64,000 nucleotides of DNA. Origin: Octopus sinensis (lineage: Eukaryota). Of the stretch, positions 23,811 to 61,083 are shown piece after piece (positions within the stretch are counted from its first letter, which is position 1; each line of letters starts with the position of its first letter). A model generated the notes under the pieces. That model saw nothing but the letters and a program-made list of their open reading frames with translations, made no database searches and had not been told where the DNA came from. Location: contig NC_043008.1 of NCBI RefSeq assembly GCF_006345805.1, forward strand, positions 51,770,001 through 51,834,000. Direction: 5' to 3'. The translations under genes were made by a program, and so were the position numbers.

Positions 23811-24152
23811 ATAAAGTGGTGGTTTGTTGCCAACTGAATATGGCAGTCCCAGGAAAGGGAAGAATGCTACTGCTATTTAGGCGCAGGAAACATCGTTTCC
23901 AGTTGGCTATGTGACACAAGCATTGTGTGTCCTTAAATTTTCAAACAGGGGAGATAAGCACCTCCACCCAGCAAAGCCCACTTTCAGAGACTAGTTTCAG
24001 AATCATTGCTCTTCATCAGTCTGGAGTTGCTTGGCTTGCTAGCTGTCAATGCTTATTCACATTTGAAGTTTCCTGGGGCTAAATAGCAGTAACAATCTTC
24101 CCTTTCCTGGGACTGCCACATTAAGTTGGCAACAAACAAACCATCACTTTAT
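23811..24152. repeat. Fold-back element: ~85-bp inverted arms (23811-23894 / 24066-24152) around a hammerhead-containing spacer
   Basis: TTTGTTGCCAACT..TGGCAGTCCCAGGAAAGGGAAGA..CTGCTATTTAG matches its reverse complement on the right arm. Confidence 0.85.
23984..24024 (-). ncRNA. Minimal type I hammerhead ribozyme
   Basis: Minus: CAGA-CTGATGA-AGAG(caatga)TTCT-GAAAC-TA-GTC^TCTG; intact core, palindromic ACTAGT stem III, GUC triplet, stem I extendable with bulges. Confidence 0.75.
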
Positions 24153-24199
24153 TGTGCTGCTACTGTATAAGTCTCTCTGAGAGATTTAGAAATGCAATA

Positions 24200-24244
<45 letters not shown>

Positions 24245-24843
24245 TGAAGTTGGTAGAACTATTGATCTTGCAAGTGCTAGTGACAAACGTTATGGAATTT
24301 GAAAGCAGGTGAAATTTCTCTATACCTATTTTATATAGGACCAGATGTACTGGGCTAGCAACAGGATATGCAAACAAGGCTCCAGTGTATTGAGACAGAC
24401 TGTTAGAAGTAAGTGTTAGGTTCTGCCATCTTAGCTAAGCAACATACAAATAATTGAGCCTAAGCTAGTAATAACATCAGAGCTAAGGTTAGATGAGGGA
24501 GTCAAAGATATTTCAAGAACTACTCTTTAAGCATTTAAGTACAACAATCAAAGGCATTAGTCAACCTGAAGGTAAAGCAAAAGACATATGCCCAAGGTGA
24601 CACATGGGGGGATTGAACTTAATGTCACTTGATTCCAAACCACACTTCTTAACAACATAGCCATGTCAACATTTATTAATTAGACCAATTAAAATGTCTT
24701 CATATTAATTATATATTAGTGTCCATTTTACATTGGAAATAAATATTATCACTCAGTCTTGAATGGAAGTTCACAGATAAATTCTTCAGTTACCGTATTT
24801 TAATAGAAAAAGTTTTAATTTTGAAAATAATGAAGAATATATT

Positions 24844-25036
24844 CTTTTCTACTCAAGGCACAAGGCCCGAAATTTTTTGAGAGGGGGCCAGTCGATTAGA
24901 TTGACCCCAGTATGCAACTGATACATAATTTTTTGATGAAAGGCAAAGTTGACCTCAGTAGAATTTGAACTCAGAACATAAAGACACAAAATACCACTAA
25001 GCATTTCACCTGGCATGCTAACATTTCTGCCAGCTC
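24844..25036 (-). mobile_element. tRNA-derived SINE inserted in a MITE, 15-bp TSD
   Basis: TSD AATGAAGAATATATT at 24829-24843 and 25037-25051; GAGCTGGCAGAA head, GAGTTCAAATTC B-box. Confidence 0.85.
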
Positions 25037-26215
25037 AATGAAGAATATATTAAAATGACTTTGTGGTTATTAAAATGATTTTTGAAACATAAATTAACAT
25101 TGAATTTTATTCGAAGGTTTTAATTTCAATCACTTTAAAACTGGAGTTTTGTATGATAGAACTAGGCGTGATATTGAGAGAGTTGGTATCAAAATAGTTA
25201 AGGAGGTAGTTGAAGGTATAGTAGCTAATGTAGTTTTGAGAGATAATGAGGTGTACAGCTTAAGTAATCCAAAAGATTGAAACAATCAACCATCCCAACA
25301 AATTCTACAGGTTTTCTGCAAACTGAGCCTTTGGATATTTTATTGGTCTCAAGATATTTATGAGTGTGCATGAAATGACAATGTAATGTCATAGAGTGCA
25401 GACTTGGTAACACTGTGTGTGTGTGTGTGAGCGAGTACACATACACACACACATTGTCTGTTTCCATGCTGGCATGGGTTGGACAGTTTGACATGGGCTG
25501 GTGAGCCAGAGGACTGCACCAAGCTCCAGTTGTCTGTTTTGGCAGGGTTTCTATTGCTAGATGACTTCCTAATGCCAACCATTTTACAGAGTGTATTGAG
25601 TGCTTTTCCCATGGCACCAACACCAGTGAGGTTACTGAAGAATTTGTATCCCAAAAACCCCTCAACTGGGAGGGAGAGTGATATTGAGAGAGGTGGCTTT
25701 GTGCCAGACGATGAGGGTTACCCCAGTCTGTGGGAAAGAGAGAGAGATGGTGGCAACGTGCCAGTGTGTGCCTCTAGATATTAGGAGATGAATGTAAATG
25801 GGGTAGAAGAGAGGACTGGATTGGGATAGTGAGCAAACAGTTCATGAGAGTGCAAAAGAGATGAAGGGAGGAGAACGGGGATGCAGTGAGTGGTGAGACA
25901 CAAGTATATAGGGGACCAGCAGGATAGCAATGATACAGCTGGCTGAGGGAAGACAGATGAGATAGATGACAGAGCAGAATTGGATGGTAGGAGTGATAGG
26001 GAGTGAAAGTATAGTGCATGAAGAGATGAAGTTTGGTTCATTGGGGTGGAGTTTAAGAATTAATGTTGAGTATGGGCAGAATAACACAGAGTGCTTCCAG
26101 AATTCAGTTTTGTTTTGCTGGATGAGTCTTCTCAACAACCTCATATTGCCATACACCTTGGTCCATTGTCATCTCCTCACTACTTTCTCACAGGATTTGC
26201 AAATAACATTCGCTA

Positions 26216-26521
26216 TCTTTATATATAAAACTAAAGTTGTGTGTGTGTGTGTCTGTCTACTCCGATTTAGATTCCTAACTACTCCCACATTTTGCGGTGC
26301 AGTTTAACCAAAAGCGGGTATCTTATAGTCGTGATTCATATCGAGCCCTTCTGGGTATTAGCGCGCGTCTACGATGAGTCTATGATTTAAAAAAAAAATT
26401 ACCATCATTTTTCCGCATTTTAATGATTTTTACTCTGGTTATATAAGGGAAGTAACTCTCTAAAAATGCTTATATAGTTATTTCCCTTACAAACCCGAGC
26501 AACGCCGGGCGATACTGCTAG
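26216..26521 (+). mobile_element. Non-autonomous Helitron
   Basis: 5' TC(TTTATATATAAAA) after host A, subterminal hairpin CCCGAGCAACGCCGGG (26494-26509), 3' CTAG followed by host T, no TSD. Confidence 0.85.
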
Positions 26522-27035
26522 TTTAATTTATAGTTAATCATCAATCATCCATCACCAAGTGGTGAACACAATAATTGTTTTCCTGAGTGGTGGCAATTGC
26601 AAATCATTCAGACATTGAGCCATCTTCAAGACTATCTCTTCCCCTCAGATGCTCACTTTTGCACTCTCATTAAAGCTGGAGCATTATCCATTAATGTAGC
26701 AATCATGTCTGTATGACAGTTCTTGGGGTCTAATCACTTTTTCTACAAATACTTGATAATACCACGATGCCAGACTTTGTCCCTTTCCAAGAGAAGTGGC
26801 AAGCTCTTACGTTTGAAGTCTTCCTTGAACAGTCAGATGTCAGTTTCGATGGAAAGAAACTATTTCTTTATTAATAGGAAGATTTGAAATTAATGCATGC
26901 AAGATTTCACAACTGTAGCATCTCTCCTTCATACACAGCCTATGAACTTTTCAGACCACCCTGATAGTAGAAGACACATGGCAAAGGTGCCATACAGTGG
27001 GAATGAATCCCAAACCATGCAGTTGGCAAGCAAAC

Positions 27036-28025
27036 TTCTTACAACACTGCCACATCATTACTCCTTACCACACTGCTACATTATTAATTATTACCACACA
27101 GCCACATCATTACTTCTTAGCACATTAATATGTCATTACTTCTTACCACACTACCAGATCTGTACTTCATACCACACTGCTACATCAATACTACTTAACA
27201 CATTCACACATCATTAATTCTTGCAAAACTAGTAAATCATTACTTCGTACCAGACGGCCGCATAATTATTACTACTTACTTCACTACCACATTACCACAT
27301 CTTTACTTCTTACAATACTGTTACATCATTACTTCTTACCACACTGTCACACCAGTATTCTTACCACACTGTATCACCATTAATTCTTGTCACACTGCCA
27401 CATCATTACTTCTTACCGCATTCCCAAATTATCACTTGTTACCAAACTACCACATCGTTAATTATTACCAAACTGTCACATCATTACTTATTACCAACTC
27501 ACACATCATTACTTTTATTACACTGCCACATCTGCACTTCTTACTTCTTACCACACCTCCATATCATTCTTACCTCACTACCACATCGTGAATTCTTAAC
27601 ACAATGCTACATCATTATTTCTTACCATCTGCCACATCATTACTTCTTACCACACCGCAACATCTGTACTTCTTACTACACAACCACATCGTGAATTCTT
27701 AACACAATGCTACATCATTATTTCTTACCATCTGCCACATCTGTACTTCTTACTACACAACCACATCGTGAATTCTTACCACACTCCTACATCATTTCTT
27801 CTTATCACACTGCCACATCATTACTACTTACCACACTGCCACATTATTACTTTTACTACACTGCTACCTCATTACTTCTCACCTCATTACCACATCATTG
27901 CTTGTTACCACACTGACACATCATTATTACTTAATACTCTCCCACATCATTACTTCTTACCATGCTGCACTTCTTACCATACTGCCACATCTCCACTTCT
28001 TACCACACTTCCACATCATTACTTC
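27036..28025. repeat. Degenerate ~26-bp minisatellite (CCACACTGCCACATCATTACTTCTTA) contiguous with a SINE head
   Basis: Roughly 35 imperfect units directly following the minus-strand SINE 5' end at ~26967-27053. Confidence 0.85.
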
Positions 28026-28133
28026 CACAAATCCAAAATGATGTAACAAATTATGAGTACTTTAGGTGAACGATATAAATGCATCACTTAAGGGTCTTAC
28101 AGATTTAAATGTATATGTATTTAGGTGTGCATA

Positions 28134-29674: not shown

Positions 29675-30039
29675 ATATTGTTGTTTTAAATGTCACACAT
29701 CAACATCATTATAAATAGGCACACCTATGCATATACAGACAAATACAGTCACATACATACACACATATTTCTATTACATATATACAAACACAAGCTGGTT
29801 GGGTGGATAATGTAGTAAACAGCCAACATGAATATATGATTTTTAACTGTATGTCTATTAAATATCTTTCTATCCACCCCCCAGTTGAAAAGCCTTTATC
29901 CATAAACATCTGAAGACTCAGATATGTCCTGGATGTACATGAAGAGATAAATCTAAATATCCTCTAGGGCAGGCAGGCAATATATCATCAGTTGCATATG
30001 AAGTGCTGGTATCAGCAAACTATGGCAATGGCTGGACAG

Positions 30040-30330
30040 AGACTAAGTGTTATATTGAATCAGTGTAAGGAAAATTTAAATCCAGATATAAAAACCATCT
30101 TTCAAAATTTAGACATGCAACAAGCCCCGTGGCATTCGTCTGGAAGCTTCAGGATGAGAACATCAGCTACAACATTAAATGGAAGAGCCTTTCCAAGACC
30201 AAACCTTATGTTAACAGGTCAAAATACATTTCATATGCTTGCATGAATAACTGTATCTTTAAAAAAAAAACTAAGAACCTCCAATGACTATAAATACCAG
30301 AAGTGAGAATATTTCTTCTTATCTGCATTT
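30040..30330 (+). mobile_element. Penelope-like GIY-YIG remnant
   Basis: YI.S..GKFKSRYKNH...FVWKLQDENISYNIKWKSL..TKPY. Confidence 0.55.
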
Positions 30331-30675: not shown

Positions 30676-30688
30676 GTGTGTAAAAGGC

Positions 30689-31057
30689 ATCATCTAAATG
30701 TGGCTGATGCCAGTACTCCCTGATTGGCTCTCATGCCAGTGGCACATAAAAAGCATCATCCAAATGTGGCCAATGCCAGTACCCACTGACTAGCCCCAGT
30801 GCCAGTGGCATATAAAATGCACTATCTGAATGCGACCGATGCCAAGCCCGCCTGACTGGCCCCTGTGCCAGTGGTATGTAAAAAGCATCCACTACACTCT
30901 CGGAGTGGGTGGCATTAGGAAGGGCATCCAGCTGTAGAAACATTGTCGGATCAGACTGAAACCTGGTGCAGCCACTGGCTGTCCAGACCTCAGTCAAACC
31001 ATCAAACCCATGCCAGTATGGAAGACGGATGTTAAACGATGATGATGATGATGATGA

Positions 31058-31061
<4 letters not shown>
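30689..31061 (+). mobile_element. RTE LINE 3' UTR fragment within (TA)n
   Basis: 3' UTR repeats, conserved 3' block, (GAT)n tail. Confidence 0.85.
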
Positions 31062-31105
<44 letters not shown>

Positions 31106-31559: not shown

Positions 31560-33260
31560 ATAGAAGAATTTTAAGGTGTGATAGAACCTATAACAACATG
31601 TAGAAAAAGGCTTTGTGTTGTTTATTAACAATTGTGGTGAATTATGTATTAATATTTGCATGGCTTCTTTTAGGTATAGTCTACAAGGGGATCGCTAGCC
31701 TTGGTAAGGGACCCTGGAGTCTATTATGGCCTAGGATTTCTTGTATGGCATCTTTCTATTTATTAGATGGTGTATATAGTTGGGTAGGGAGATCAATTTG
31801 CTATACTCCTCATACTTAAATGAGTTCATATGTGCAGAATATCTCTGTTTAAAATTAATAGTAGACCTGATATAGTAGTTAGCAGAATTATGTGATATGT
31901 TGTGGACCATGCATTTGTATACTACGTTAAATCTTATAGAGTGGGCTTGCAATGGGCATTCGGTTATGGATTAGCAGTTATATCTATTTGTCCTATGAGT
32001 GTTATTATTTATGGAGAAATTAGAATTAAAGGTGTTGTTAGGGGATTAGCCCGTATTATAATTATTGTTGTTGTCATTATTATTATTATCATTAGTAGTA
32101 GTAAAATTATTATCACTGTCAATAACACTAGCAATAGTAGTAATGGTGGTATCAGTCATATTGGAGTTGTTAATATTAGTATTAGTGGTGGTGCTATTAG
32201 TATCCACACTCATCTCAGTTACACTTTGACCTTCATAGGAGGCAGGGATGTTTGTATCTTGGTTAATTCTGATTCTAGTGGGTGTGGTGTATGCCATCAA
32301 TGTTATTAGTGTTTTTGTAGCTTTGACCTTTGTTATGATTATGTATATTTAGGTAGTAGGAATTATATTTATGTTTATTGGAGGAAGTAACAATAGATTC
32401 TATAATGAGCAGAGAGGAGTAGGATAATTTGGGGGTGTCAGTCTATTAAAGATTGAATGGTACTTATGGTGATATGGGAAGTTAGCATCTACTATTTGAA
32501 AGAATGTTTTGGCTAAGCCCTTAATGTTTAAGGTGAATGGAGGTATAAACCAGAGAATTGATTTACCCAACTTTTGTTAGGCAAAATAGGGGAAGTATAA
32601 TCTGCAGTATTTGTTAGAGGTGAGTTGTAAGCTTTATTGTCATTCATAGTGGAATGGTTTATTTGTCTAGTAGTGGGGCATGCCTTTTGGGATTGAGATT
32701 AGCAATGTTTTTTTTTAAGCCTAGTGTTTGCCATGAATTTAATTTGCTGGGAGAAGCTGCTAGCAGTTAGTGCCTGGTTATAGTATGTAGCATGGATATT
32801 GAAGATTTCCTCCATGGCCGAGAGATCAGATATCTAAATAGATATACCTTTGATTACTCTATTGAAGGTAGATTTATTGTGCTTAGCATCTGTATTAATG
32901 TATCTGAAGTATTGATTCGGTTTATGGAAAGGGGGAGTGTAGCGAAGATTCTAAATCTAAAGTAACATCTACAAAGTGAGCCTTTTTGTAAGTGTTTTCA
33001 AAGGAGATAGACGAGTTAAAATTAGCAAAGAATTTATGTGAGTTTTTTTTAGTTTTCTCTAATTCAGATTTACTTATTTTCGTAGTAACCAGCAATGCAT
33101 TGTTCCTATACTAACAGCTCCCAAAGTTAGAGAAATACATGCGAAGTTGTTGGAAAAGGTATACTTCAAACAACTCTGTGACCTGAGTAGAGTTGGAGGA
33201 GCCCATGGTTATATCTTAGAAGTTATTATGGGTATCCTGGCACCAAAGTTAATCATCGTA
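31560..33260 (-). mobile_element. Degenerate Penelope-like element (second family)
   Basis: DITMGSSNSTQV (RT motif), ILWFIPPF-like segment, GIY-YIG YYIRSTINFKQRYSAHMNSF. Confidence 0.7.
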
Positions 33261-33468: not shown

Positions 33469-35035
33469 AGTTTTTGTATGTGGCAGATGCTCAGGAGCAT
33501 TAACCTCCGAAAATCTGCAGAAAATAACTTCCGTCACTTTCCAAGGGGAAAAACTAGAAGTAGTTGATAGCTTCCGTTATCTAGGTAACCAAGTCAGTAG
33601 TGGGGGTGGGTGCGCTGAAAGTGTAACTGCTAGAATAAGAATAGCCTGGGCAAAGTTTAGGGAGCTCTTACCTCTGCTGGTGACTAAAGGCCTCTCGCTC
33701 AGAGTAAAAGGCAGACTGTATGATGCATGTGTACGAACAGCCATGCTACATGGCAGTGAAACATGGGCCGTGACTGCCGAGGACATGCGTAAGCTCGTGA
33801 GGAATGAAACCAGTATGCTCCGATGGATGTGTAATATCAGTGTACATACTCGACAGAGCGTTAGCACCTTGAGAGAAATGTTGTACCTAAGAGGCGTAAG
33901 TTGTGGTGTGCAAGAGAGACGATTGCGCTGGTATGGTCATGTGGCGAGAATGGATGAAGATAGGTGTGTGAGAAAGTGCCAATCCTTAGCAGTTGAGGGA
34001 ACCCGTGGAAGAGGTAGACCCAGGAAAACCTGGGACGAGATGGTGAAGCACGACCTTCGAACTTTAGGCCTCACTGAGGAAATGACCAGCGACCGAGACC
34101 TTTGGAAATATTCTGTACGTGAGAAGGCCAGGCAGGACAAGTGAGCCCAGTCCACTTATGAATGCCTTTCCTCCCTTGGATACAAAGATCTGTTGAGGCA
34201 AGCGAAGTCGATATAGAACCTCATCCGACGACAGGCACCCATGCCAACCCCCTTTGCTTGCGAAGACATGTTGGGGCAAGCGAAATCAAAATCGAATTGA
34301 ACCAGCCAGGATCCCTGGTCTGGTGGTACGTAAAAAGCACTATCCGACTTGTGGCCGATGCCAGCGCCACCTCCACTGGCTTCCGTGCCGGTGGCACGTA
34401 AAATACACCAATCTGACCGTACGACAGGCACCCATGCCAACCCCCTTGCTTGCGAAGACATGTTGGGGCAAGCGAAATCAAATCAAATCAAATCGAATTG
34501 AACCAGCCAGGATCCCTGGTCTGGTGGTACGTAAAAAGCACTATCCGACTCGTGGCCGATGCCAGCGCCACCTCCACTGGTTTCCGTGCCGGTGGCACGT
34601 AAAATACACCAATCTGACCGTACGACAGGCACACATGCCAACCTCCTTGCTTGCGAAGACATGTTGGGGCAAGCGAAATCGAAATCGAAATCGAATTGAA
34701 CCAGCCAGGATCCCTGGTCTGGTGGTACGTAAAAAGCACTATCCGACTCGTGGCCGATGCCAGCTCTGCCTCGTCTGGCTTCCGTGCCGGTGGCACATAA
34801 AATACACCAATCCGACCGTGGCCGTTGCCAGCCTCGCCTGGCACCTGTGCAGGTGGCACGTAAAAATCACCCACTACACTCAAGGAGTGGTTGGCGTTAG
34901 GAAGTGCATCCAGCTGTAGAAACACTGCCAGATAAGACTGGAGCCTGGTGCAGCCTTCTGGCTTCCCAGATCCCCGGTCGAACCGTCCAACCCATGCTAG
35001 CATGGAGAACGGACGTTAAACGATGATGATGATGA
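33469..35035 (+). mobile_element. RTE LINE 3' fragment with triplicated ~195-bp 3' UTR block
   Basis: ORF 33680-34144 RTE C-terminus; near-identical units starting ~34226, ~34422, ~34623; (GAT)n tail; (TA)n on both flanks. Confidence 0.9.
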
Positions 35036-35051
35036 TATATATATATATATG

Positions 35052-35097
<46 letters not shown>

Positions 35098-35375: not shown

Positions 35376-35533
35376 TATATATATAGATATATATATATAT
35401 GTATATATACAAAAAGCAATAAAGATTCAAGTTAATTTAAATGAATTTACTTGAATATGGTACCTAACTTAGATGCACCAAAAAAAAAAAAAAAAAACTA
35501 TACTGTTTTAACAATACAGTAATGTGGGGTGAT

Positions 35534-36381
35534 TATAAGTGAGAAAGAAGCAACAAGAATGGATAGGTTTTTAGTACAATCGTTTCATACAAGGACAGGC
35601 TTTATTAAAAGTTGCAAAAATTACAGCATATAAACGTGTCCCGTACTATCAGCTAAAATACATGTGAGTTCTCTAGACATCCTAGTGGTGAGGCTATACT
35701 CATGAAGTAATGAAGATAATTAAGTAACATAAACATAAACAGATATCCAAAGTTCATTAAAGTTCTTTAAAGATGATGTACAGTCTTATCACAGAATTTT
35801 AAAAAAGTTTTAATAGCAACCCAGAGAAGGTGACCTAATCCATAGTGCACATATGAATTTCCAGAGATATGATGAGGGATTACATACTCACAGAAGACAA
35901 ATTTATCCATTGTTAATCACAACGAGGTGGGTCTCAATTCCTGCTTATTAGCATTACAGAGAGGGTGAATTAATCCTTGTATAGATGCACAATTCCAATG
36001 GTGTAGATGTAAATTTCCAGAGAAATGAAGAGGAATTTCATATTCACAGGCGATAAATTATCAATGGTTGAACACAATGAGGTAGGTATCAATTCTTGTT
36101 ATATGATTAGGTATTTGCCACATTAATCATATTACTGCTATTTACAAGAGGCTGTAGCTATTAACTTTTTGGATATCTGTTTATGTTTATGTTACTTAAT
36201 TATCTTCATACTTAAGTATAGCCTCAACCACTAGGATGTCTAGAGAACTCACATGTATTTTAGCTGATGAGTACGGGACACGTTTATATGCTGTAATTTT
36301 GCAACTTTTAATAAAGCCTGTCTTGTATGAAACGATTGTACTAAAAACCTATCCATTCTTGTTGCTTCTTTCTCGCTTATA
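35534..36381. repeat. Fold-back element: ~215-bp inverted arms (35534-35751 / 36168-36381), each carrying a hammerhead motif
   Basis: Arms nearly perfectly complementary; spacer contains an imperfect ~140-160-bp direct repeat. Confidence 0.9.
36258..36346 (+). ncRNA. Minimal type I hammerhead ribozyme with long stem II
   Basis: TTTTAG-CTGATGA-GTACGGGACA...TGTCTTGTAT-GAAAC-GATT-GTA^CTAAAA: 6-bp stem I, 10-bp stem II (with G-U), GUA triplet. Confidence 0.8.
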
Positions 36382-41689: not shown

Positions 41690-41789
41690 AACCTGAAGAG
41701 TGACTATAATTTTAAATTGAATTGATTTGGATTAAATTTAAATTTAATTGTAATTCGAATTTAATTATAACCATGAAACATATGTAGTT
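41690..41789 (+). ncRNA. Minimal type I hammerhead ribozyme in a Penelope 3'-end remnant (~41000-41945)
   Basis: AAC-CTGAAGA-GTGACTATAATT...AATTATAACCAT-GAAAC-ATAT-GTA^GTT; flanks match the 3' end of the Penelope copy at 14620-14770. Confidence 0.6.
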
Positions 41790-47295: not shown

Positions 47296-47334
<39 letters not shown>

Positions 47335-49904: not shown

Positions 49905-50125
49905 AAGGTGGTGAGCTGGCAGAATTGTTAGCATGCTGGGCAAAATACTTAGTAGTATTTCATCTACCACAATGTTCTGAGTTCAAATTTCACCAAGGTT
50001 GACTTTGCCTTTTGCCCTTTCGGGGTCAATTAAATAAGTACCAGTTACGCACTGGGGTTAATGAAATCAACTAGCCCCCTCCCCCAAATTTCAGGCCTTG
50101 TGCCTATAGTAGAAAGGATTATTAT
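49905..50125 (+). mobile_element. tRNA-derived SINE (GG.GG.GAGCTGGCAGAA head)
   Basis: Head, B-box GAGTTCAAATTT, GACTTTGCCTTT..CCTTTCGGGGTC..AAATAAGTACCAG core, tail GGCCTTGTGCCTATAGTAGAAAGGATT. Confidence 0.8.
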
Positions 50126-50688
50126 GCTTGTATATGGCAATTTAAAACTGCAGTTAAAATATCTGAATGAAAGACAGAGTTAAGTGAAGTTTACAAATCT
50201 AACATACTAACTTCTCTACTCCAATCTATTTAATTAACTCTGAAAATCATATTGAAAATTTTCCAAGCCAAAAGCACAGTCTTGTAATGATTCTGTAGCA
50301 AAACTAAGCTGGATGAGAGAAGAAGAGATTAGGGATTTTACCCCTTACAAAAGTTCCCTATTGCCCTCCAAATGAAACAAGGTTTGAACATTTCCTTATG
50401 GTACTGGATCATAATACAAGAAGTTAAGAGTTAAAATGACACTCATGATGAAAAGTAAACTCCTGAGTATGAAAAATCATTAGGTGCAGGCATGGGTGTG
50501 TGGTAAGATGCTTGCTTCCCAATCACATGGTTCTGAGTTCAGTCCTACTACATGGTACCTTGGGCAAGTGTTCTCTACTATAGCTTTAGGCTGACCAAAG
50601 TCTTGTGAGTGGATTTGGTTGACAGAAACAGGAAGAGCCCTGTTGCATTTATATATGTGTGTGTGTGTATATATATATACACACAAAA

Positions 50689-50994
50689 TATTTTATAATT
50701 ATATACATAATTATAACAAGGGATTGGCTTTATGCCTCACTACATACTGCAAGAAATAGATACTAAGCCTCTATTACCACTTTAAAATCTCCAAGAATAA
50801 CACACTATATTGTAGGCAAGCAAAGGTTAACTAACTTCATTGATTCATTATTTTCCTTTTGCTTGCCTACAATGTAGTGTGTTATTCTTGGAGATTTTAA
50901 GGTGGTAATAGGGGCTTTAGTGTCTATTTCTTGCAGTGCATGGTGAAGCATAAAGCCAGTCCCTTGTTATAATTATGTATGTAATTATAAAATA
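50689..50994. repeat. Fold-back palindrome, ~137-bp arms, ~28-bp spacer
   Basis: 50689-50826 is the reverse complement of 50855-50994. Confidence 0.85.
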
Positions 50995-51100
50995 GTTTGT
51001 AAAATTTACCAATGAGGCTTTTATTTCTGCACTGACTAGCTAGTAAAATTATTGATTTTACCCTTTTAGTATAATTAATATGAATATACATCATACATAC

Positions 51101-51150
<50 letters not shown>

Positions 51151-51153
<3 letters not shown>

Positions 51154-51950
51154 GCTGTGTGGTAAGTAGCTTGCTTACCAACCACATAGTTCTGGGTTCA
51201 GTCTTACTGCATGGAACCTTGGGCAAATGTCTTCTACTATAGCCTCGGGCCAACCAAAGCTTTGTGAGATGATTTGGTAGATAGAAACTGAAAGAAGCCC
51301 ATTGTATATATCATCATCATCATTTAATGTCTGTTTTCCATGCTGGCATGGGTTGCACGGTTCCACTGGGGTCTGGAAAGCCAAGGGGCTGCACCAGACT
51401 CCAACATGATCTGGCAGCATTTCTACAGCTTGATGCTCTTCCTAACGCCAACCACTCTGAGAGTGTAGTGAGTGCTTTTTACATGCCACTGGCACTGGGG
51501 CCAGAGGGGGCTGGCATCGACCACGTTTGGATGGTGCTTTTACTTGCCACTGGCATGAGAGCCAGTCAAGTCAGCACAAGAACCAACCAAGGTGAGGGGT
51601 GTGGCATCGACCATGTTTGGATTGTGCTTTTTACATGTCACTGACACAGGGAGCCAGACGGGCGGGGCTGGCATATATATATATATATATGTATATGTGT
51701 GTTTGAGTGTGTGTGTGTGCATGTGTATATGTTTGCATGTCTGTATTTGTTGCTCCATCATCACTTGACAACCAATGATGCTGTGTTTATGTCCCTGTAA
51801 CTAAGCAGTTCGACAAAAGAGACTGATAGAATAAGTACCAGGCTTTAAAAAAGTACTGGGGTTGATTCATTCAACTAAAATTAAAATTATTCAAGGCAGT
51901 GCCCCAGCATGGTCGCAGTCAAATGACTGAAACATGTGAAGGAGAAAAGA
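51151..51950 (+). mobile_element. tRNA-derived SINE interrupted at its internal TA tract by a minus-strand RTE 3' fragment (51310-51672)
   Basis: GTGGCTGTGTGGTAAG head; SINE resumes after 51672 and ends in GTGCCCCAGCATGGTCGCAGTCAAATGACTGAAAC. Confidence 0.8.
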
Positions 51951-52437
51951 TAAAAAATTATTAAAGATTCAGAGCCTGGTGCAACCATCTGGTTCGCCTG
52001 TCCTCAGTCAAATCGTCCAACCCATGCCAGCATGGAAAGCGGAGATTAAACGATGATGATGATGATGATGATGCATGCTTGTCAAATTGAGGACTGACAA
52101 TAAATGTGACTATGCAGTAGAGAGAGTGTGTGCGGTCTGGTAAGAATAAATATCACTATATTTTACTGAGGTGGTTTAATATATACCACCAAAATATACT
52201 AATAATCAGACTACTTTCTACAGCATGCCTCCATTAAATTTTTTATAAACTTTGTGGAATTGCCTCTCTTGATTTTGACAGCAATTATCACTAAAACTAA
52301 TACATTTTCTTTTAATTACATTGGTAATGTAGAAATATGATAAATTCATTTTTCATTTTCACATTAAGTATATTAACTTCCACTTAAGTATACATAAAAT
52401 ATTGTTCAACTGAATATCTTATTGTTTTCTTCTGCAG

Positions 52438-52480
52438 TTATTGGCATCTTATTTTTGATAATCATCATTTTCAGTATCAG
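52438..52480 (+). CDS. Exon g; transmembrane helix
   Basis: ttttcttctgcag acceptor, CAG|gtaaaa donor; 43 nt, phase 1->2; VIGILFLIIIIFSI(R). Confidence 0.8.
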
Positions 52481-52587
52481 GTAAAATCATATATTATTAA
52501 TCTTTACTTTCATTTTATTATCTTCTTTTGTTTGCATGTATGTGTGTGTGTATTTGTGTTTTTCTGCATGTATTTATATATGTGTGG

Positions 52588-52627
<40 letters not shown>

Positions 52628-52741
52628 ATCACAAACCAACCAAACCACCAACCATCAGATGTTGTTACACATCGCTGGTCACAATGCGTTCGCATTGTTT
52701 TAGCTTTCGAATGACGCCACCCCATTGGCTAAGCGAGCAGG

Positions 52742-52783
<42 letters not shown>

Positions 52784-52816
52784 ATATATATATACATATA
52801 TATATAACATATATGC

Positions 52817-52981
52817 ACAGGCATGGCTGTGTTTGAAGAAGCTTGCTTCTCAACCACATGGTTCAGGGTTTAGTCCACTGCATGGCACCTTGGACAGGTG
52901 TCTTTTACTACAGCCCCAGACCAACCAAAGTCTTGTGAGTGGATTTGGTAGACAGAAACTGAAAGAAGCCTGTTGTGTATT

Positions 52982-53056
<75 letters not shown>

Positions 53057-53270
53057 TTGTGTGTCTTTGTGTGTGTGTTTATCCCACCTCCATCATTTGA
53101 CAACCGATGTTGATGTATTTATGTCCCTGAAATGTAGTGGTTCGGCAAAGAAGACCAATAGAATAAGTACAAGGCTTACAAAGAATAAGCTCTGGGGTCG
53201 ATTTCTTCAACTAAAGGTGGTTGTCCAGCCTGGCCACAGTCAACTGACTGAAATATGTAAAAGAGTAAAG
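52817..53270 (+). mobile_element. tRNA-derived SINE (GTGGCTGTG-head family)
   Basis: Head, CACCTTGGACAGGTGTCTT core, internal (TA)n, tail CCAGCCTGGCCACAGTCAACTGACTGAAA. Confidence 0.75.
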
Positions 53271-53301
53271 TGTGTGTGTGTATACTTATAGATAAATAGA
53301 A

Positions 53302-53348
<47 letters not shown>

Positions 53349-53356
53349 CATATATA

Positions 53357-54215
53357 CAGTGTGTGGTGAATAAACTGTCATCTAAATTACACAAAAATGA
53401 AAATAACACTAATATCTCATTGTAACTGATGTATTTACTAAAATTAGATAAAAAATATCTTGAAGTACTAAGGAGTAAATTCATTCAATAAAATCGTCAT
53501 TGGCTTCAACCTTGGCCTCCAGAGGACTTCAGAATCTCCTGCATATCTTCTGGATGGTCTCCTTGTTTAAGTTGGTGAATGCTGCCATAGTCCTAGCCTT
53601 TTCTTCATATTTGGTGTGACACAGAGTTTCTTGTTCAACACATAATAAAGAGGGTTGCAGTCTGGGGAGTTAGATAGCCAGATGTTAGGGGTGATGTGGT
53701 TGCAGAAATTATCTAACAGCCATGACTGGGTTCTCCTGCACGTGTGGCATGGTGCAGAGTCCTGTTGCCAGACATAGGATCTTCCCACACCACCCTCTTG
53801 ACCCAGGGCAGCATTACCTCCTTCAGACACTTGATGTAGCCCTTCATGTTGAGTGTGAGGTCATGTGGGAAGATGAATAGAGGCATAATGTTGTCATCAC
53901 AAGTGGTTACTCCAAACACAATTGTGTTGTGTAAATGTCTGATTTTTATCACTCTCAGTACATGGATTCAGATTGCACTGTCCTCAGATTGACACCCAAA
54001 CACTCTGAAATGTTTGTATCAGTGTAAAATATTTGTATCGCTTCTTGTGTGTTTCCAAATTTCTGGTAGAGTGAATTGTGCCATGGTGCTATTTTTCTCA
54101 CAGACAGTACCCAACTGACCCTACTGTATTGTGTAGTTGACAAAATCAAAAACAAACAATGCACATGCATGAAATTAAAAACAGGAAATGGTGACAATTT
54201 ACCCATCGCTCCCTG
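53357..54215 (-). mobile_element. Internally deleted Tc1/mariner-superfamily DD37D (maT-type) transposon
   Basis: TA-flanked imperfect TIRs CAG.G.G.G.TG..TAAA.TGTCA; WQQDSAPCH...W..NSPDCNPL(Y) with 37 residues between the second and third catalytic positions. Confidence 0.8.
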
Positions 54216-55049
54216 TATACACACACATATATATAACATAAATCAAAGTGGAGAACAGATATTTGTAGGTCAAATTCCTTTATCATGGGAATACAAAATG
54301 CATAAAAAGTTCATCAAGGTATCAGATTTCAAGCGCTCCAATATTGCAATCCAAAGAAAAGCATTAGTACAAAACCTTACAATCATTTTGGAGAATACGT
54401 TTGTATTGGGTGAATTTTCCAGCTAACACAAATAGTCACATTTCCCTCATCAGATGTACAAAAAATTGATTAAAATAGTTTTTAAATTTGAGAAAGTTTA
54501 AAATATCTCCTACTTACAGTACTTGAAATCATATCAGATGATGTTATTGTCCTTTTTAAAAATATTATAGTTTTTTAAAAGTTTGCAAGGATATAGAAAA
54601 AAGCATTGCGGAGTGAAAAAAGGTTGTGAAATAAGACATTTGTGTGAATGAAAATAAAAATAAATATATATTATATTTGTAAAAATCAAATGACGGATGC
54701 TATATTGGATAATAGAAAGGAAGACTTAAATCAAGTTAACCATTTAAATGAACTGTTGGATTGTTTATAATTAAAGATAGTTAAATAATTAAAAATAATT
54801 TAAAATAAGTTGAATCTATAGAATGTTGGTGGGAACAGTTTAAAAGTTCACATGATATTTATAATTTACAATGATTGCTGACTTATAACTTATATATATA
54901 AGGTTAATAAGTTCAAATACTAAGCTAAGCCTGTGAAGCACTGAGATGTCAAAGTATATAGAATTTTATGCTTACACTTTAAGTTAGTCATATCGAACGA
55001 GAGCGGAAAATTTTTTTTATTATTTTATTAAGGCAAGTCAATGTTCATA

Positions 55050-55817
55050 AGTTCAGATTCTATCCTTTCTACTCTTTAAAAAACTTAAACGTAGATAAAT
55101 ACTTATGCCTACATACATTATAATGCCTGAGATTTTATTAATTAAAATTTTCTTGCCTGTATGAAATATACGGATTGCTCACTTCCAGTATACCTTCTAT
55201 ATGGGGTGGTTTCTGACATGATTGACCAGTCTAATCTAAATTCCTTATTCCGCATTTTTAGTTTATTAATATACATAGCCAGTGCTGTTGCATTTTTGGT
55301 TTCTGGGTTTGAGAATGAGCTCATGTGTCTTCTATATCTCGTTTTAAAGTCTGTAGTAGTCCCTATGTATACTTTCTTAGGTTGGTTGGCTATTACAACC
55401 TCAGTCTTGTATACCACGTTTTTCCTAAGGGACATAAATTGCAGGCTTTATTCCTGTTATTCATCCCTGTGCATACTTTATATATGTTATTATTAACACT
55501 ACTCGTATTGGGGCTACCCTATTCCATATTCCCATTCCCAAGCTTAAATCTATTATTCCCTGCGAATATCAGTCATAAATTCGGTGTAGTTGAGTATAAG
55601 AGTTTTAGACAGGAGATCTATTAAAAATAGAGCAGTATTTGTGGCCCACAGGAAAATTCTTATCGACAATACTAAAAAACATTTTTGGGAGATTTTTAAC
55701 CTGAAGGGAGAAAGCGGAGTTAAACCATATAACTTCCCGTATTCTCACTGTTTTACTTCCAGTTTGCCACTGTTTATTATTATTTTTTATTACTACTACT
55801 ACTACTACTACTACTAT

Positions 55818-55864
<47 letters not shown>

Positions 55865-56200
55865 TACATGTTAGGATACCTAGGAAATCTCCTAAAATGA
55901 TAGGAGTCATGTTGTTCAGGAGGGTTATTTACATGCAAGATATCAATACCGGATTCCACTAGATTTGGAAAAAGTTTACTTAATCTGTATATGAATAGGA
56001 TACATTTAAAATAGTATATATCTTCTTTAAAACTGCTATTCCTCAAAGCTGCGTTAACAATAGGCACCACATTGTTAAAAACTATTTGGTTTGCCAACAA
56101 ATTAGATAACCTAATTGAAATCCCCCTAATCAATCCATTGATGATACTTTGTGGGTGGTTAGATAGTGTATGAATGTATTAGATTGTTTTATTCAGCTTA
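55050..56200 (-). mobile_element. Penelope-like element 3' part (RT thumb + GIY-YIG)
   Basis: SNHPQSII, VIWFNSAFS, VYIGTTTDFKTRYRRHMSSF..ATALAMYI..WSI. Confidence 0.8.
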
Positions 56201-56746
56201 TAAGTAGGGATAAAATAGCTCATTATCCAAATTTTATTCATCACTTTCAATTTTCTCCTAGGAATAACTAATTAAACGAATTCCGCTGTATGTTTTTAAA
56301 ATTCATTTTATTTTATTTCATTTTAAAAAACTGCTTTTTCCAAAATTAAGTCCATAGGCCAAAATACAGACTTAAATAAATTTGTTTAAATAACTTTTTT
56401 TTTCTGAAAATAATAAAAATTACTGGGGCTAAACACGAAAAGAGTTTCTGAATATAAGCCCACAGACAAAAAACTGGATGGGCTTATTTTTGGAAAAATC
56501 CAGCAATGTTTTTATAATTTTTGTTTTAATAAAATATAGTAAATTTCCAAAATGTTGTTCTTAGCTGTAATACTTTAAGTACAGTAGAATTTTAATTTTA
56601 AGTACATTTAGAGGTGACAAAGTGGGCAAATTCCACTGTAGAAATCTTGTTCTGTATTTTCCCAGGCGTAATAACTAAAGAATTCTAACATGCATACACC
56701 TGCATTTTTCATTGTAATATATATGTATATGTCATCACCATGAACA

Positions 56747-58140
56747 TCATCATTTAATGTCCATTGTCCATGCTGGGATGTGTTGGACGGTTTGACAAGG
56801 CTGGTATACTGGAAGGCTGCAACTAATTCCAGTCTGATTTGGCATGATTTTCTATGGTTGGATGCCCTTCCTAATGCCAACAACGCCAAGAGTGTAATGG
56901 GTGCTTTTATGTGTCACTGGCATGTGTGCCAATTTGTGAGACACCAGTATCTGCCACAACTGCAATTTTGCTTGGCTTGATGGTTCTTCTTCTCAAGTAC
57001 AACATAATGCCAAAGATCTTGATCATTGCCTCCATGAAACCCAACACTCAAAAGGAACTCAGCCACTTTGCCTCCGTGAGGCTCAATGCTCAAAATGAAC
57101 TCAGTCACTTTACCCCTGTGAGGCCCAATCTTTAAAAATGTTCTTTACGTGCCATCAGCATGGCCCTGTCTATCACATCATTTGATTACCACATTACCCT
57201 AGGTCTGGATGGGACTTAGGGTTAGGGTTTGGTCTGTGGCATTCAGCAAGCTGTCCCTCAGGAATTCCCAGTTGCCCTCAAGTCTGTATCTCCTCCTCCC
57301 TTTCATCAAACTTCTCAATTAAGACGTCCCTAAATTTCTGACCATATGAAGGGCCCTTAAACTTCCAAATTCCTCTTTTCCAGATTGATTTACTTCTTGG
57401 CTTTCTTCTGGCCTGGAGTCTAAAGTCACTAATGACTAGTCTATGCTGGGGAGTACATTCTTCTCCAGGAAGGGTCTTTGTATTTAGGAGCAACCATGCA
57501 TCCCACTGTTTGGTGAGAATCTAATCGATCTGGTTAGCACAGACACCTGATTGATAGGTTATTAGGAGGCAGGCTGGCTTCCTGATGTTTGTGTTGCAAA
57601 TCAAAAGGTTATTTGCATCACAGAACTCCAGTAGCCTTGTCCCTCTTTGCTTTGGGAGCCAAATCCATAGCCCCCATGCACACCATAGAAGATACCAGGC
57701 TGTTGTCGAGCATGCCTGCGGAAATTCCCGGCCATAAAGAGGAGATCATTGTAATTTGTATCTAAAGTAGCCTGTAGAAGAATGTCATAAAAGTGTTTTT
57801 CTGTTCATTTGGTAGGCCCGCTTGATGGGCATAGGCAGAGATAATTGTCATTATACTATACTGTAAGACTAGCCTAAGCTTAAGCACTCTATCACCCACT
57901 CTGATTACCTCTATAACCTTATCCATCCATTTCTCTGCAAGAAGTATGACACGCCACCTACTCCGTCACTGTTACCTTCCCAAAAGATTTTATACTTATA
58001 TATCTTGCCTGTGAGGAACCTGGCTGAAGCTCCTCTTCACCTTATCTCTTCGATGCAACATTCATCAACACGCCTCTGTTCAAGCATCTCAACAATCTTG
58101 CTAGACCTACCTCTCAGTGTGCCTACATTGATAGTGCCAA
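56747..58140 (-). mobile_element. RTE derivative: APE region fused directly to 3' UTR (RT missing)
   Basis: TINVGTLRGRSSKIV, GEECTPQHRLVISD at 57170-58140; 3' UTR and (GAT)n tail at 56747-57165. Confidence 0.75.
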
Positions 58141-58658
58141 ATCAGAAAACTAGGAAACGGACGTGGGCAGGAACATGGAAAGAAGTGATTTTATTCAGCA
58201 CCTGAATATATATATTTAAAAATCAAAAAGAGTAGTATAAAATATGGATTCAGAGAAGCTTGTAGATATCACAGTAAGCTCTTCCTACAGTCTTGGCTAT
58301 CAGTTCATGTCGAGATCAATTACAAAACTTATGACATAAAGTTTCTGTGTAACTGGAAAGCCTGAAAATCCGAGTGATAAATTATTCTGTGAGGAGAATA
58401 TGAACCACGAAAGTCAGATGGTGTGAGAGGTGAATATCAATTAATTTAACTGCCTGATGACCAAAGAATTCTGGATGTTTTGCTACCTTCTTCATGTAGT
58501 ATTAATATGTATACTCCATATTACACAATACAATCATATATTCACAAATTAATGCATCTAAACAGAGCTAGCTTATCAGATCACCAGAACCTCATATTTA
58601 TATTGTTCACAGAAAATTCTCTCTTTAGATATGGAAAGTCTGAACTGGAAAAAAATTA

Positions 58659-60335
58659 TTGGGTCATTCCATAGATAACACAATTCTTATACACTTCTTT
58701 TATCTTTCAAAATTGAGATAAACAAAGTTCTTTTTTACTTAAAATATAGTCTCGTTCATATTCTACAATTCTCTTCCATCTATCTAGTACACTTGCAAGG
58801 CCCCTCTTCCAAAATTCACTTGTCCGTGATGAAAAGTACTCCTCCCTCGTACTGTTTTGACCTTGTCTACAAAATTCATATTTTTTCCATCCAAATGATT
58901 TTAAAAACTGCAGAATAACTGTTAATCAGATAGGGCAATGTCTGGCAAATATGAAGGGTGGGGCATCATTTCCTATTCACACTGCTTCAGCCTTTGGAAT
59001 GTCATTCTTAGCTGATCACAGTAGATCTCCTTTGTTATCATTTGGTTTGGGGTTTAAAAGTTCAAAGTAGACTAACCTTTCATATCCCACCAAACAAATA
59101 ACAACACCTTACGTGTGTGAAGATTTTCCTTAGCCTGGGGTCCCACTGTTTCTCCTTTCCCTACCCACATTCTTCAGCTTTTGACATTTTTATAGAGTAC
59201 TCATTTCTCATCACCAGTCACTATTCGATCAAAAAAAAGGTCCATTTGTGATATGTGACAGTAAAGAAGAGTACACATTCACTCTCTGCATGTGATTAGA
59301 CTTGGAATGTTTATGAGGAACTCCTTGACCCAATTTGCTGACTTTTTCAATGGCATGCAGCAGTTGATGAATAGCTGAATGACCAAATCCAAGCTTCTCT
59401 GCTAGTTTCTCAACAGTTACAATGGGATTTTGTTCCACCAGGGTTTGTAGGATGTTCTCGTGAAGCTCTACAGATTTTCCAAGATGTGGAAAATCGAAAT
59501 CGATCAACATCAATGGAAATTGCAGCTGTGATACTAGTGACGGTGAAACGTAAGAGAACCATCTGTGGCGTGGCCAGCCAGCACCGCCTTGACTGGCCTC
59601 GTGCTGGTGGCACGTAAAAAGCACCATCCGTTTGTGGCCGTTGCCAGCCTCACCCGGCCCCCGTGCCAGTGGCACGTAAAAAGCACCATCCAATCGTGGC
59701 CATTTGCCAGACTCGCCTGGCCCTCGTGCCGGTGGCACGTAAAAAGCACCATCCGATCGTGGCTGATTGCCAGACTCGTCTGGCACCTGTGCCGGTGGCA
59801 TGTAAAAAGCACCCACTACCCTCAGAGTGGTTGGCGTTAGGAAAGGCATCCAGCCGTAGAAACATTGCCAGATCAGACTGGGCCTGGCGCAGCCTTCTGG
59901 CTTCTCAGACCCCAGTTGAACCGTTCAACCCATGCTAGCATGGAAAGCGGATGCTAAACGATGATGATGTGGCTCATCTTCTAGGTTGTTGTTCCAAGCT
60001 CAGAATTTCTGGAACTACTGCTGACATTGGCTTATGCATATTGTCCAATCACCATATGTTGCATTAATATTCTTCACATTTTCACTGCATTGTTGCCTTT
60101 ACGTAACTCATAAAACAAAATATGCCAAATATGCTCCTTTGTCACTTCCATTTTAGCTTTGAAGAAATAACTGCTAAAATCGAACTGCACTCTTCAAAAC
60201 TTGTACTAAGAATAAGTATACGGTAAAATTACTCCCTGCTTTTATAGCATGTTGATGCAGGTAGTTTATCCTGCCCCCTCTGACTTTTAGTTCATGCAAT
60301 TTTAAAAAAACCACATAATTTATGGTATGACTCAA
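58659..60335 (-). mobile_element. Degenerate mariner element, interrupted by an RTE 3' fragment (59490-59969)
   Basis: TA-flanked TIRs TTG(G/A)GTCAT.CCATA; motifs GQGVPHK (WVPHEL), IVTGDEK, HPSYLPDIALSD (YSPDLAPSD). Confidence 0.85.
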
Positions 60336-60563
60336 TACTTTGTTCTGGTCAGTAAAAGGTAAACAACAGAACAAGGACATACTGTGGTGCTATTCATTAT
60401 AGAAAAATTTTAGAAATTTTTACTACCAGTGGTCTATCATGTAGAAAAATTAGTCAATAGACTATATATTATTCATATAGAGTGTACATTTAAATACACT
60501 AAGCCACTGGTAGTAAAAATTTCTAAAATATTTTCTCACCCTGATATTATTAATTATATACAT

Positions 60564-60618
<55 letters not shown>

Positions 60619-60691
60619 CACACACACACATACATATACATACATACATATATATATATATCTAATATATATATATATATCTATATACATA

Positions 60692-60734
<43 letters not shown>

Positions 60735-60875
60735 TATGCATACACACAAACACACACACATACATATATATATTAATAATAATAATATGACAACAAAAGA
60801 ATGAATGAGATCTCGATATTGTGTAAATAGAAGAATTTATCTATAATGTAATATGTGACAATTAGTCGGTTGCCA

Positions 60876-60938
60876 TAATAAAACTCCGAGTTTCAGATGT
60901 TGGGGCAGAACTCTACTCAGGCATCTCGTCAGTTATTA
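60876..60938 (-). ncRNA. Type I hammerhead ribozyme (antisense partner)
   Basis: Minus: TAATAA-CTGACGA-GATG...CATC(T)-GAAACT(CGG)AGTT^TTATTA. Confidence 0.6.
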
Positions 60939-60963
60939 AGACAAACAGCATTTTTGTTTGTCT

Positions 60964-61026
60964 TAATAACTGATGAGATGCCTAAGCGGGGTTCTGCACT
61001 GACATCCGAAACTTGGAGTTTTATTA
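60964..61026 (+). ncRNA. Type I hammerhead ribozyme (sense to host gene)
   Basis: TAATAA-CTGATGA-GATG...CATC(C)-GAAACT(TGG)AGTT^TTATTA; 6-bp stem I, GUU triplet. Confidence 0.65.
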
Positions 61027-61083
61027 TGGCAACCAACTGATTGACAAATATTACATTATATATATATCTTTTGTCTATTGCAG

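Follow-up and report, generated by a model that had tools for sequence, protein, structure and literature searches.

Three fold-back elements with hammerhead motifs in a 64-kb stretch of the Octopus sinensis genome as probable head-to-head copy pairs of Penelope-type retroelements

A stretch of 64,000 nucleotides of the Octopus sinensis genome (NCBI RefSeq assembly GCF_006345805.1, contig NC_043008.1, positions 51,770,001 to 51,834,000 of the forward strand; hereafter the window, numbered from its first letter) was studied for three inverted-repeat, or fold-back, elements that carry motifs of the hammerhead ribozyme. The three fold-backs are very probably head-to-head pairs of copies of hammerhead-bearing Penelope-type retroelements, the second arm of each having likely been made at insertion by priming on the two strands of a (TA)n target. 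Both arms reproduce a single unit whose fixed 3′ end faces outward, and in families 1 and 2 (named after elements 1 and 2) the inner 5′ end differs by locus. Just outside the elements there is (TA)n or another microsatellite, both here and at most of the loci aligned, which is an observation of adjacency and not of enrichment. An earlier description of the window, the original prediction, had seen here several families of non-autonomous ribozyme elements packaged in fold-backs and mobilised by Penelope-like elements. Its view of them as retroelement products linked to Penelope-like elements, and not miniature inverted-repeat transposable elements (MITEs) of the DNA type, is upheld. The packaging is not, as the second arm in families 1 and 2 is truncated differently at each locus and is always placed head-to-head. 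Since such a variable head-to-head second arm is a published by-product of Penelope insertion, the hairpin does not appear to be a designed unit.

The source genome comprises 2.72 Gb in 13,516 contigs, with a G+C content of 37%. The window's own fold-backs or flanks served as queries for loci, and for each family the 10 to 25 best-scoring loci were examined, of 113 to 3,112 first-look candidates. All three predicted inverted-repeat elements are present. The arms of element 1, at 23822-23894 and 24065-24137, measure 73 nt and are 90% complementary; in element 2, 35534-35751 pairs with 36168-36381 at 95%; and the arms of element 3, at 60835-60947 and 60955-61067, measure 113 nt and are 86% complementary. 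The elements have in common only words of 9-13 nt, in agreement with their earlier description as unrelated in sequence.

Element 1 consists of a longer, 5′-truncated copy of the family 1 unit at 23811..24067 on the minus strand (unit positions ~61-317), whose 3′ end adjoins (TA)n at 23786-23810, and of an inverted copy at 24068..24152 on the plus strand (the right arm of the original prediction), also 5′-truncated (unit ~237-317). The latter is the only arm followed by a tail, at 24153..24200 (+), after which (TA)n occupies 24201-24236. The unit is ~317 nt long in the sense of the motif and ends in ...CACTTTAT; after its position 317 comes either (TA)n or the tail YRTGCTGCTACTGTATAAGTCTCT. 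The tail YRTGCTGCTACTGTATAAGTCTCTCTGAGAGATTTAG runs back into the start of the unit, measures 37-48 nt and is found on one arm only, the other arm passing into (TA)n or unique DNA. The search of the same genome yielded 3,112 first-look candidates, and all 40 that were scored matched. Among 23 distinct loci, 14 were head-to-head with the 5′ ends inward, 6 solo and 3 tandem (L031 with three units, L039 and L042), and none was tail-to-tail. In the head-to-head pairs the shorter copy begins at unit positions 126-261, varying by locus. The family extends over no more than ~400 bp, beyond which the flanks are not common between loci; it has no open reading frame (ORF) and a G+C content of 0.44, and a Penelope ORF lies within 1.5 kb, the distance used in all such counts, of 2 of the 23 loci.

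The hammerhead of family 1, a predicted minimal motif of type I, lies at 23984..24024 (-), with the predicted cut between 23989 and 23988. In the window it reads CCAGA-CUGAUGA-AGAG-CAAUGA-UUCU-GAAAC-UA-GUC-UCUGA, and in the majority of the family CCAGA-CUGAUGA-AGAG-CAAUGA-CUCU-GAAAC-UA-GUC-UCUGG; the window motif is the weaker of the two, with one G.U pair and one helix I pair lost. The prediction of cores in this element was correct for one motif, at the centre of the longer copy, the other arm having none.

Element 2 had been regarded as a further non-autonomous family, and this had to be abandoned. It consists of a 5′-truncated pseudo-long terminal repeat (pLTR) at 35403..36169 on the minus strand (positions ~530-1287 of 1287) and, head-to-head with it, an inverted partial pLTR copy at 36184..36381 on the plus strand (~962-1165), which ends at a TA-rich microsatellite. 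The inverted copy holds a hammerhead at 36258..36346 (+), with helix I UUUUAG/CUAAAA, a long helix II and the string GAAAC-GAUU-GUA, and with the predicted cut between 36340 and 36341. On the other arm, at 35566..35660 (-), the motif has decayed by a 1-nt deletion in the CUGAUGA box (CUGAU-AG). The segment 35520-36169 is found at many places of the genome at 96-98% identity. Among the listed loci the inverted partners vary (query 15-243, 15-314 and 15-650), and the head-to-head orientation is the same in five places and in the window.

The reference for this family is locus L068, where direct repeats of 1,287 bp, 99% identical and 4,615 bp apart, surround pieces of a minus-strand ORF. The hammerhead occurs in both repeats, on the ORF strand, ~170-245 nt from the 3′ end of the repeat. 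The ORF pieces are frameshifted and display YGDD and other blocks like those of reverse transcriptase (RT), as well as a C-terminal GIY...YIG with cysteine motifs; these were picked out by eye, and we take them to be RT and GIY..YIG motifs. In a comparison with the Atlas the ORF matched clusters named GIY-YIG, with scores of 0.95-0.96. An endonuclease ORF accompanies 16 of the 25 family 2 loci. Alignment of 39 copies, nearly identical to one another, showed an intact motif in 37. Because of the pLTRs and ORF of L068, the position of the motif on the ORF strand and the proximity of the endonuclease ORF in 16/25 loci, element 2 is to be read as a fragment of an autonomous Penelope-like family, that is, a 5′-truncated pLTR with an inverted piece. 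Two further observations concern this family. The protein P0001 encoded at L068:4211-5494 (-) contains an asparagine-rich low-complexity stretch of ~200 residues upstream of the GIY-YIG region. Assembled contigs from four runs of uncertain type, compared with 35400-36395, gave short family contigs and, in one run, two opposite-strand joints; such contigs are uninformative on RNA ends, strand or cleavage.

Element 3 is composed of a long arm at 60771..60947 (-), which includes a tail of ~75 nt (60771-60845) beside a TA-rich microsatellite, and of a tailless short arm at 60955..61055 (+), which ends in ATTACA and is followed by (TA)n. Both arms carry hammerhead-like motifs. The one at 60964..61026 (+) reads UAAUAA-CUGAUGA-G-AUG..CAU-C-C-GAAAC-UUGGAG-UU|UUAUUA, with the predicted cut at 61020|61021, and the one at 60876..60938 (-) contains CUGACGA and, further on, CUGAAAC. 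Read outward, the arms of the family give UAAUAA-CUGAYGA-G-AUG...CAU-C-C-GAAAC-UCGGAG-UU|UUAUUA, that is, a helix I of 6 bp, a helix II with one unpaired C and, as helix III, a near-palindrome of 9 nt. The search produced 2,620 first-look candidates, of which the 40 scored were all near full length and on both strands. Copies are ~80% alike, with one arm of ~215-290 nt, no ORF and a G+C content of 0.34, and a Penelope ORF accompanies none of 14 loci. In all 14 the ~75-nt tail, ending ...TTACTATTAA(TA)n, is on exactly one side; the tailless arm ends near ATTACA, against microsatellites of several kinds. When the two arms of one copy were compared, 49 same-base variants were common to both, versus 15.6 ± 4.0 after permutation (maximum 29 in 1,000), so that both arms of a copy derive from one template. 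These common variants, together with the one-sided tail, fit the origin of the arms as two cDNAs from one single-arm RNA.

As to the tailless ends, in several loci (e.g., L009, L011, L014, L004) they fall within ~15 nt of ATTACAGATA and a microsatellite follows directly. This may be (GATA)n, (TCA)n, (GT)n, (CA)n or (TA)n, and it often opens with the last bases of the element. The pattern looks as if microhomology priming with the repeat had occurred, or as if the end had seeded the repeat.

Concerning the hammerhead motif itself, the core boxes CUGANGA and GAAA were found in the right order and spacing at 23984-24024 (-), 36258-36346 (+), 60964-61026 (+) and 60876-60938 (-) of the three elements, and also at two solitary sites, 20322-20416 (-) and 41690-41789 (+). 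Together with a decayed site at 54371..54459 (-), these represent six families unrelated in sequence, with the same helices made of differing sequences. The helix III cores are UA, GAUU, AGCU, GUAC, GAUC and UCGGAG, and the motif lies 100-270 nt from the 3′ end. The retention of pairing despite differing helix sequences between the six families is a direct reading, with no statistical test attached. The words of the core and helix III are intact in 14/23, 37/39, 7/13, 7/17 and 3/12 aligned copies of five families, and in the majority string of every family. Helix III and loop 3 form self-complementary strings, namely ACUAGU, ACGAUUGU (with wobble pairs), ACAGCUGU, ACGUACGU (ACAUAUGU in the window) and, in a family majority, ACGAUCGU; the corresponding string of family 3, ACUCGGAGU, is of odd length. 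At the 10.1-11.1 position there is an A-U pair in family 1, G.U in family 2 and the 41690 family, an extra G and then G-C in the 54371 family, and G-C followed by a bulged C in family 3. Minimum-energy folds of the isolated motifs, which were not used as a test, approximate a hammerhead in families 1 and 2. The assignment to the minimal hammerhead type of Penelope, with a short self-complementary helix III, stood as predicted, and by their sequence the motifs are candidate minimal type I hammerheads that are predicted to cut weakly or as dimers.

The motifs were also searched with descriptors of our own. The strict one demands CUGANGA, helix II of at least 3 bp, GAAA, helix III of at least 2 bp, UH and helix I of at least 4 bp; its background was estimated with 100 dinucleotide shuffles of the 64-kb window. 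It gave 3 matches, versus 0.09 ± 0.35 in the shuffles (30-fold): 23985-24023 (-), 36258-36346 (+) and 59064-59181 (-), the last one absent from the original prediction. The relaxed descriptor tolerates one unpaired nt beside helix II and was written post hoc, with element 3 already known; it gave 6 matches versus 0.05 expected. So, of the cores that had been predicted in each of the three elements, one in element 1 and one in element 2 pass the strict descriptor, and those of element 3 pass the relaxed one only. Because two of the six relaxed matches (458-544 and 59064-59181) fall in unrelated sequence, a descriptor match alone constitutes weak evidence and not proof, and the behaviour of the repeat families carries more weight. 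Both of these matches were set aside as probable chance: 458-544 (+) is inside coding sequence resembling the RT of a long interspersed nuclear element (LINE), and 59064-59181 (-) has a helix II loop of 89 nt and sits beside a possibly mariner-like ORF. This ORF, a frame of 231 aa at 59229-59924 (-) just upstream of the match, has no Pfam match, and we take its end to resemble the helix-turn-helix start of mariner-type transposases.

The origin of the fold-backs can be pictured with the help of the literature. A Penelope enzyme would prime reverse transcription on both strands of the (TA)n target, thus giving rise to the second arm, and the tail would correspond to the segment that separates two start sites of the RT. 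For family 1, with its tailed unit of ~317 nt, and for family 3, Penelope enzymes would do the copying in trans, in the manner of retrozyme-like non-autonomous elements. This keeps the part of the original prediction that spoke of non-autonomous ribozyme families for families 1 and 3, which have no ORF and a Penelope ORF near only 2/23 and 0/14 loci, respectively, and discards it for element 2. Families 1 and 3 are thus likely non-autonomous, retrozyme-like units. In a comparison of the window with itself, neither showed similarity to the Penelope remnants present there, and no autonomous partner emerged from it.

Several observations weigh against this account of the fold-backs as Penelope-type copy pairs. 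A scan with covariance models had been proposed as a check of the prediction, and the Rfam hammerhead families match none of the candidates: over the window no hammerhead model reached its gathering score, nor E ≤ 10, and no hammerhead family appeared at E ≤ 10 on nine candidate stretches (1,332 bases). Stem covariation, another feature looked for, did not emerge in family 1, where, over 23 distinct rows, none of the 11 pairs had both of its partners altered; paired cells amounted to 91.7%, not above shuffles, and the identity of the hammerhead was 0.951, versus 0.89 ± 0.06 for the unit, with 20 of 302 windows higher. Such absence of covariation or of special conservation of the motif is expected of decaying dead copies. 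The ORF of L068 gave no above-threshold match to RT (RVT_1) or GIY-YIG in Pfam, the GIY-YIG score being 19.8 bits, under the cut-off of 22.6. The motif of family 3 is non-canonical, with its unpaired C in helix II and the odd length of its helix III palindrome, and the minimum-energy folds of the isolated region, again not used as a test, are not hammerheads. In a transcript spanning both arms of family 3, the motif would pair with its antisense. Those arms, moreover, meet at a near-constant centre, a feature that families 1 and 2 lack and that leaves room for a palindromic master copy. Target-site duplications are unreadable, the flanks being microsatellites. Finally, the sampling of loci, by best scores and with fold-back or flank queries, favours two-armed copies.

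The near-constant centre of family 3 invites a more specific idea. Tentatively, family 3 could be an obligate-hairpin parasite of Penelope enzymes, in which a short single-arm RNA of ~215-290 nt, carrying a variant hammerhead, is at every insertion copied completely, up to its 5′ terminus, from the two strands of the target; we regard this as a possibility, and a rather unlikely one. If it were true, family 3 copies would be born as near-perfect hairpins with arms of ~110 bp and a one-sided tail, and the constant centre would mark the 5′ end of the RNA. The family would then be a natural, genome-wide record of two-strand priming, and a dispersed source of long hairpin double-stranded RNA.

Among other explanations, the one that survives best is that of the original prediction, in which the hairpin itself is the mobile unit, in the form of non-autonomous ribozyme families with a long hairpin RNA. 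Family 3 is its strongest case, for its copies are two-armed, of near-constant length and with one centre, the 40 scored candidates (of the 2,620) are nearly full length on both strands, and no Penelope ORF is near any of the 14 loci. Against this, the length of the second arm varies in families 1 and 2, where solo and tandem copies occur as well, and in family 3, too, the arms of a copy have far more variants in common than arms of different copies, and one arm is always tailless. A hammerhead inside a hairpin RNA would also pair with its antisense. On balance we consider this explanation improbable.

A second alternative, that of DNA MITEs or foldback transposons of the ordinary kind (terminal inverted repeats, TA target-site duplications) whose hammerhead words are incidental, would account for the TA-rich flanks of all three elements and for the constant arms of family 3. 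The variable arm length in families 1 and 2 largely refutes this explanation. Neither does it suit the fixed 3′ ends with 5′-truncation gradients, the asymmetric termini (tail one-sided in 14/14 family 3 loci), the linkage of family 2 to an RT/GIY-YIG ORF or the occurrence of tandem arrays (locus L031), and no association with a transposase was seen. We give it very little credence.

Scarcely any more credible is that the repeat architecture is real and the hammerhead-like words are chance or dead relics, inactive in every copy: the Rfam result, the 44 CUGANGA and 160 GAAAC words that the window contains anyway, the two descriptor matches in unrelated sequence, the family 1 result on covariation, and published reports that minimal hammerheads cleave poorly in vitro (PMC4209133) and that cleavage is unneeded for insertion (PMC11167929) speak for it, but the strict descriptor matches 30 times more often than in shuffled sequence, the core, helices I and II and a self-complementary helix III are retained by six unrelated families, 100-270 nt away from the 3′ end, and the majority strings are better motifs than the decayed window copies.

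The account in terms of Penelope-type copy pairs can be compared with known systems. Minimal hammerhead ribozymes sit in Penelope pLTRs; their helix I is short, their helix II is long and frequently bulged, and their helix III is palindromic (Cervera and De la Pena 2014, PMC4209133). Their copies number thousands and are mostly solitary, with low cleavage in vitro, and dual motifs occur ~100-700 bp apart on opposite strands (PMC4209133). Craig et al. (2021, PMC8557442) describe Penelope insertions with an adjacent inverted 5′-truncated copy, (TA)n targets and a tail of 30-40 bp that is frequently confined to one end. With a purified Penelope protein, Frangieh et al. (2024, PMC11167929) showed that the two strands of the target are each cleaved and extended, that the tail is the segment separating two internal start sites of the RT, and that hammerhead cleavage is unneeded in vitro. 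Animal retrozymes have been defined (Cervera and De la Pena 2020, PMC7229834; Li, Clavereau and Pollet 2026, bioRxiv 10.64898/2026.07.22.740005), and it has been proposed, and in the 2026 preprint argued, that they are non-autonomous derivatives of Penelope (PMC7229834; bioRxiv 10.64898/2026.07.22.740005).

The families described here resemble endonuclease-bearing Penelope insertions in the head-to-head inverted copy, the variable 5′ truncation, the fixed 3′ ends, the partial tandems, the one-sided tail, the (TA)n flanks and the location of the hammerhead close to the 3′ end and on the ORF strand, and probably also in the family 2 ORF, with its RT-like and C-terminal GIY-YIG-like features. The tail of family 1 (37-48 nt) and that of family 3 (~75 nt) are longer than the published 30-40 bp, and it is a further difference from endonuclease-bearing Penelope elements that families 1 and 3 are ORF-less and that the family 3 pairs meet at a near-constant centre and not at variable truncation points. 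The motifs are like the minimal hammerheads of Penelope in being of type I, with a helix I of 4-6 bp, a long helix II often with a bulge or extra nt, and a short self-complementary helix III, as well as in their thousands of dispersed, mostly solitary copies and in the dual motifs on opposite strands. Where those ribozymes have a conserved G-C at 10.1-11.1, family 1 has A-U and family 2 has G.U, and family 3 departs from them by an unpaired nt on the 3′ side of helix II and by its odd palindrome of 9 nt.

With the metazoan retrozymes of the type without LTRs (~150-450 bp) families 1 and 3 have in common the ORF-less AT-rich units, the type I hammerhead and the co-existence with Penelope-like elements. 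In contrast to the tandem arrays and abundant circular RNAs of retrozymes, tandems account for just 3 of the 23 best-scoring loci of family 1, most of the others being single or hairpin insertions. MITEs and foldback DNA transposons are similar in being short, ORF-less and high-copy, with inverted arms and TA-rich flanks, and dissimilar with regard to the variable arms (families 1 and 2), the one-sided tail, the 5′ truncation with a fixed 3′ end and the linkage to RT elements. Every feature found is already in print, the departures being the longer tails, the rare tandems of family 1 and, in family 3, the constant centre and the odd motif. The 64 kb contain at least six unrelated families with hammerheads, first-look candidates for each family running from hundreds into the thousands, and the window displays a dense population of Penelope-type elements and ORF-less relatives. 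The hairpins visible in the raw sequence would be by-products of insertion and not designed units, which is useful for repeat annotation. The loci of these families are natural material for the two-strand priming model and for the Penelope tail; they open no new question.

Regarding the solitary and decayed cores of the original prediction, those at 20322-20416 and 41690-41789 proved to be full cores with weak helices, and that at 20098-20150 only half a motif. The hammerhead at 20322..20416 (-), with GAAAC-AGCU-GUA, belongs to a further family with a fixed 3′ end near 20219 and a 5′-truncation gradient; its copy from 20219 to ~20760 (-) stands head-to-head with a Penelope ORF remnant that starts near 20765 (+). 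The half motif at 20098..20150 (-) has GAAAC-AGCU-GUA without CUGANGA and is outside the unit of that family. The hammerhead at 41690..41789 (+), with GAAAC-AUAU-GUA, GUAC in most copies and a helix I of only 3 bp, is near the 3′ end of a longer 5′-truncating retroelement family. The core predicted at 54375-54458 is indeed a decayed copy; the CAAAC taken for its core is not the core, and the GAAAC of the family is located further 3′. This decayed hammerhead (54371..54459) belongs to the 3′ part of Penelope remnant 56178-55196 (-) and reads AAAAU-GAUU-GUA, the family majority being GAAAC-GAUC-GUA. The families of the 20322, 41690 and 54371 sites gave 1,817, 2,107 and 113 first-look candidates, respectively. 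All three have sharp 3′ ends and 5′-truncation gradients, with inverted partners at some loci, and their majority strings are full motifs with helix III cores AGCU, GUAC and GAUC. The 54371 family lies downstream of a same-strand GIY-YIG ORF in 3 of 11 loci, the window included.

The statement that at least four Penelope copies are found in the window is borne out, as tblastn with a Penelope ORF of the same genome as the query gave five ORF remnants. These are located at 15599..17181 (-; end of the RT plus GIY-YIG), 20765..22819 (+; N-terminal part, RT and GIY-YIG, with the tblastn match at 21511-22691), 31563..33110 (-; RT plus GIY-YIG), 55196..56178 (-; end of the RT plus GIY-YIG) and 29928..30215 (+; a fragment with GIY-YIG only). 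The 3′ part of the 41690 family recurs at 14592-14775 (-), downstream of the remnant 17181-15599 and on the same strand; there are hints that this family is the 3′ region of the Penelope type of that remnant. The longest RT ORFs of the window (36994-40111 and 42527-45169, both +) were rejected as Penelope, since they combine Exo_endo_phos and RVT_1 and thus belong to LINEs of the apurinic/apyrimidinic endonuclease type. The second of them shows a PHD-finger match after the RT.

Some minor observations concern other repeats of the window. The idea of a short interspersed nuclear element headed by a tRNA was considered, and ARAGORN found no tRNA-like gene in the window. A segment of ~400-500 bp, ending before an A-run at ~20050, appears seven times at 72-88% identity (19542-20036, 46819-47306, 34719-35086, 11202-11602, 30681-31102, 13208-11885 and 56931-56717). 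It looks like the 3′ end of a 5′-truncating LINE family with its RT ORF at 17472-18248 (+). The Rfam rows naming microRNA families were discarded as genes, being TA/TG microsatellites and plain hairpins, all under their gathering scores. A near-perfect hairpin at 50780-50902, with arms of ~43 bp, lies outside the elements of the original prediction, and no hammerhead words were seen in it; a plant microRNA model scores both of its strands, well below gathering. Lastly, five probes (from 20070-24165 and 41600-61060 of the window) have inverted copies of 99-100% identity on the same contig, at ~52.19 Mb and ~51.64-51.66 Mb. In each group the coordinates add up to a constant, as for two large inverted duplications, or for haplotype copies misplaced in the assembly.

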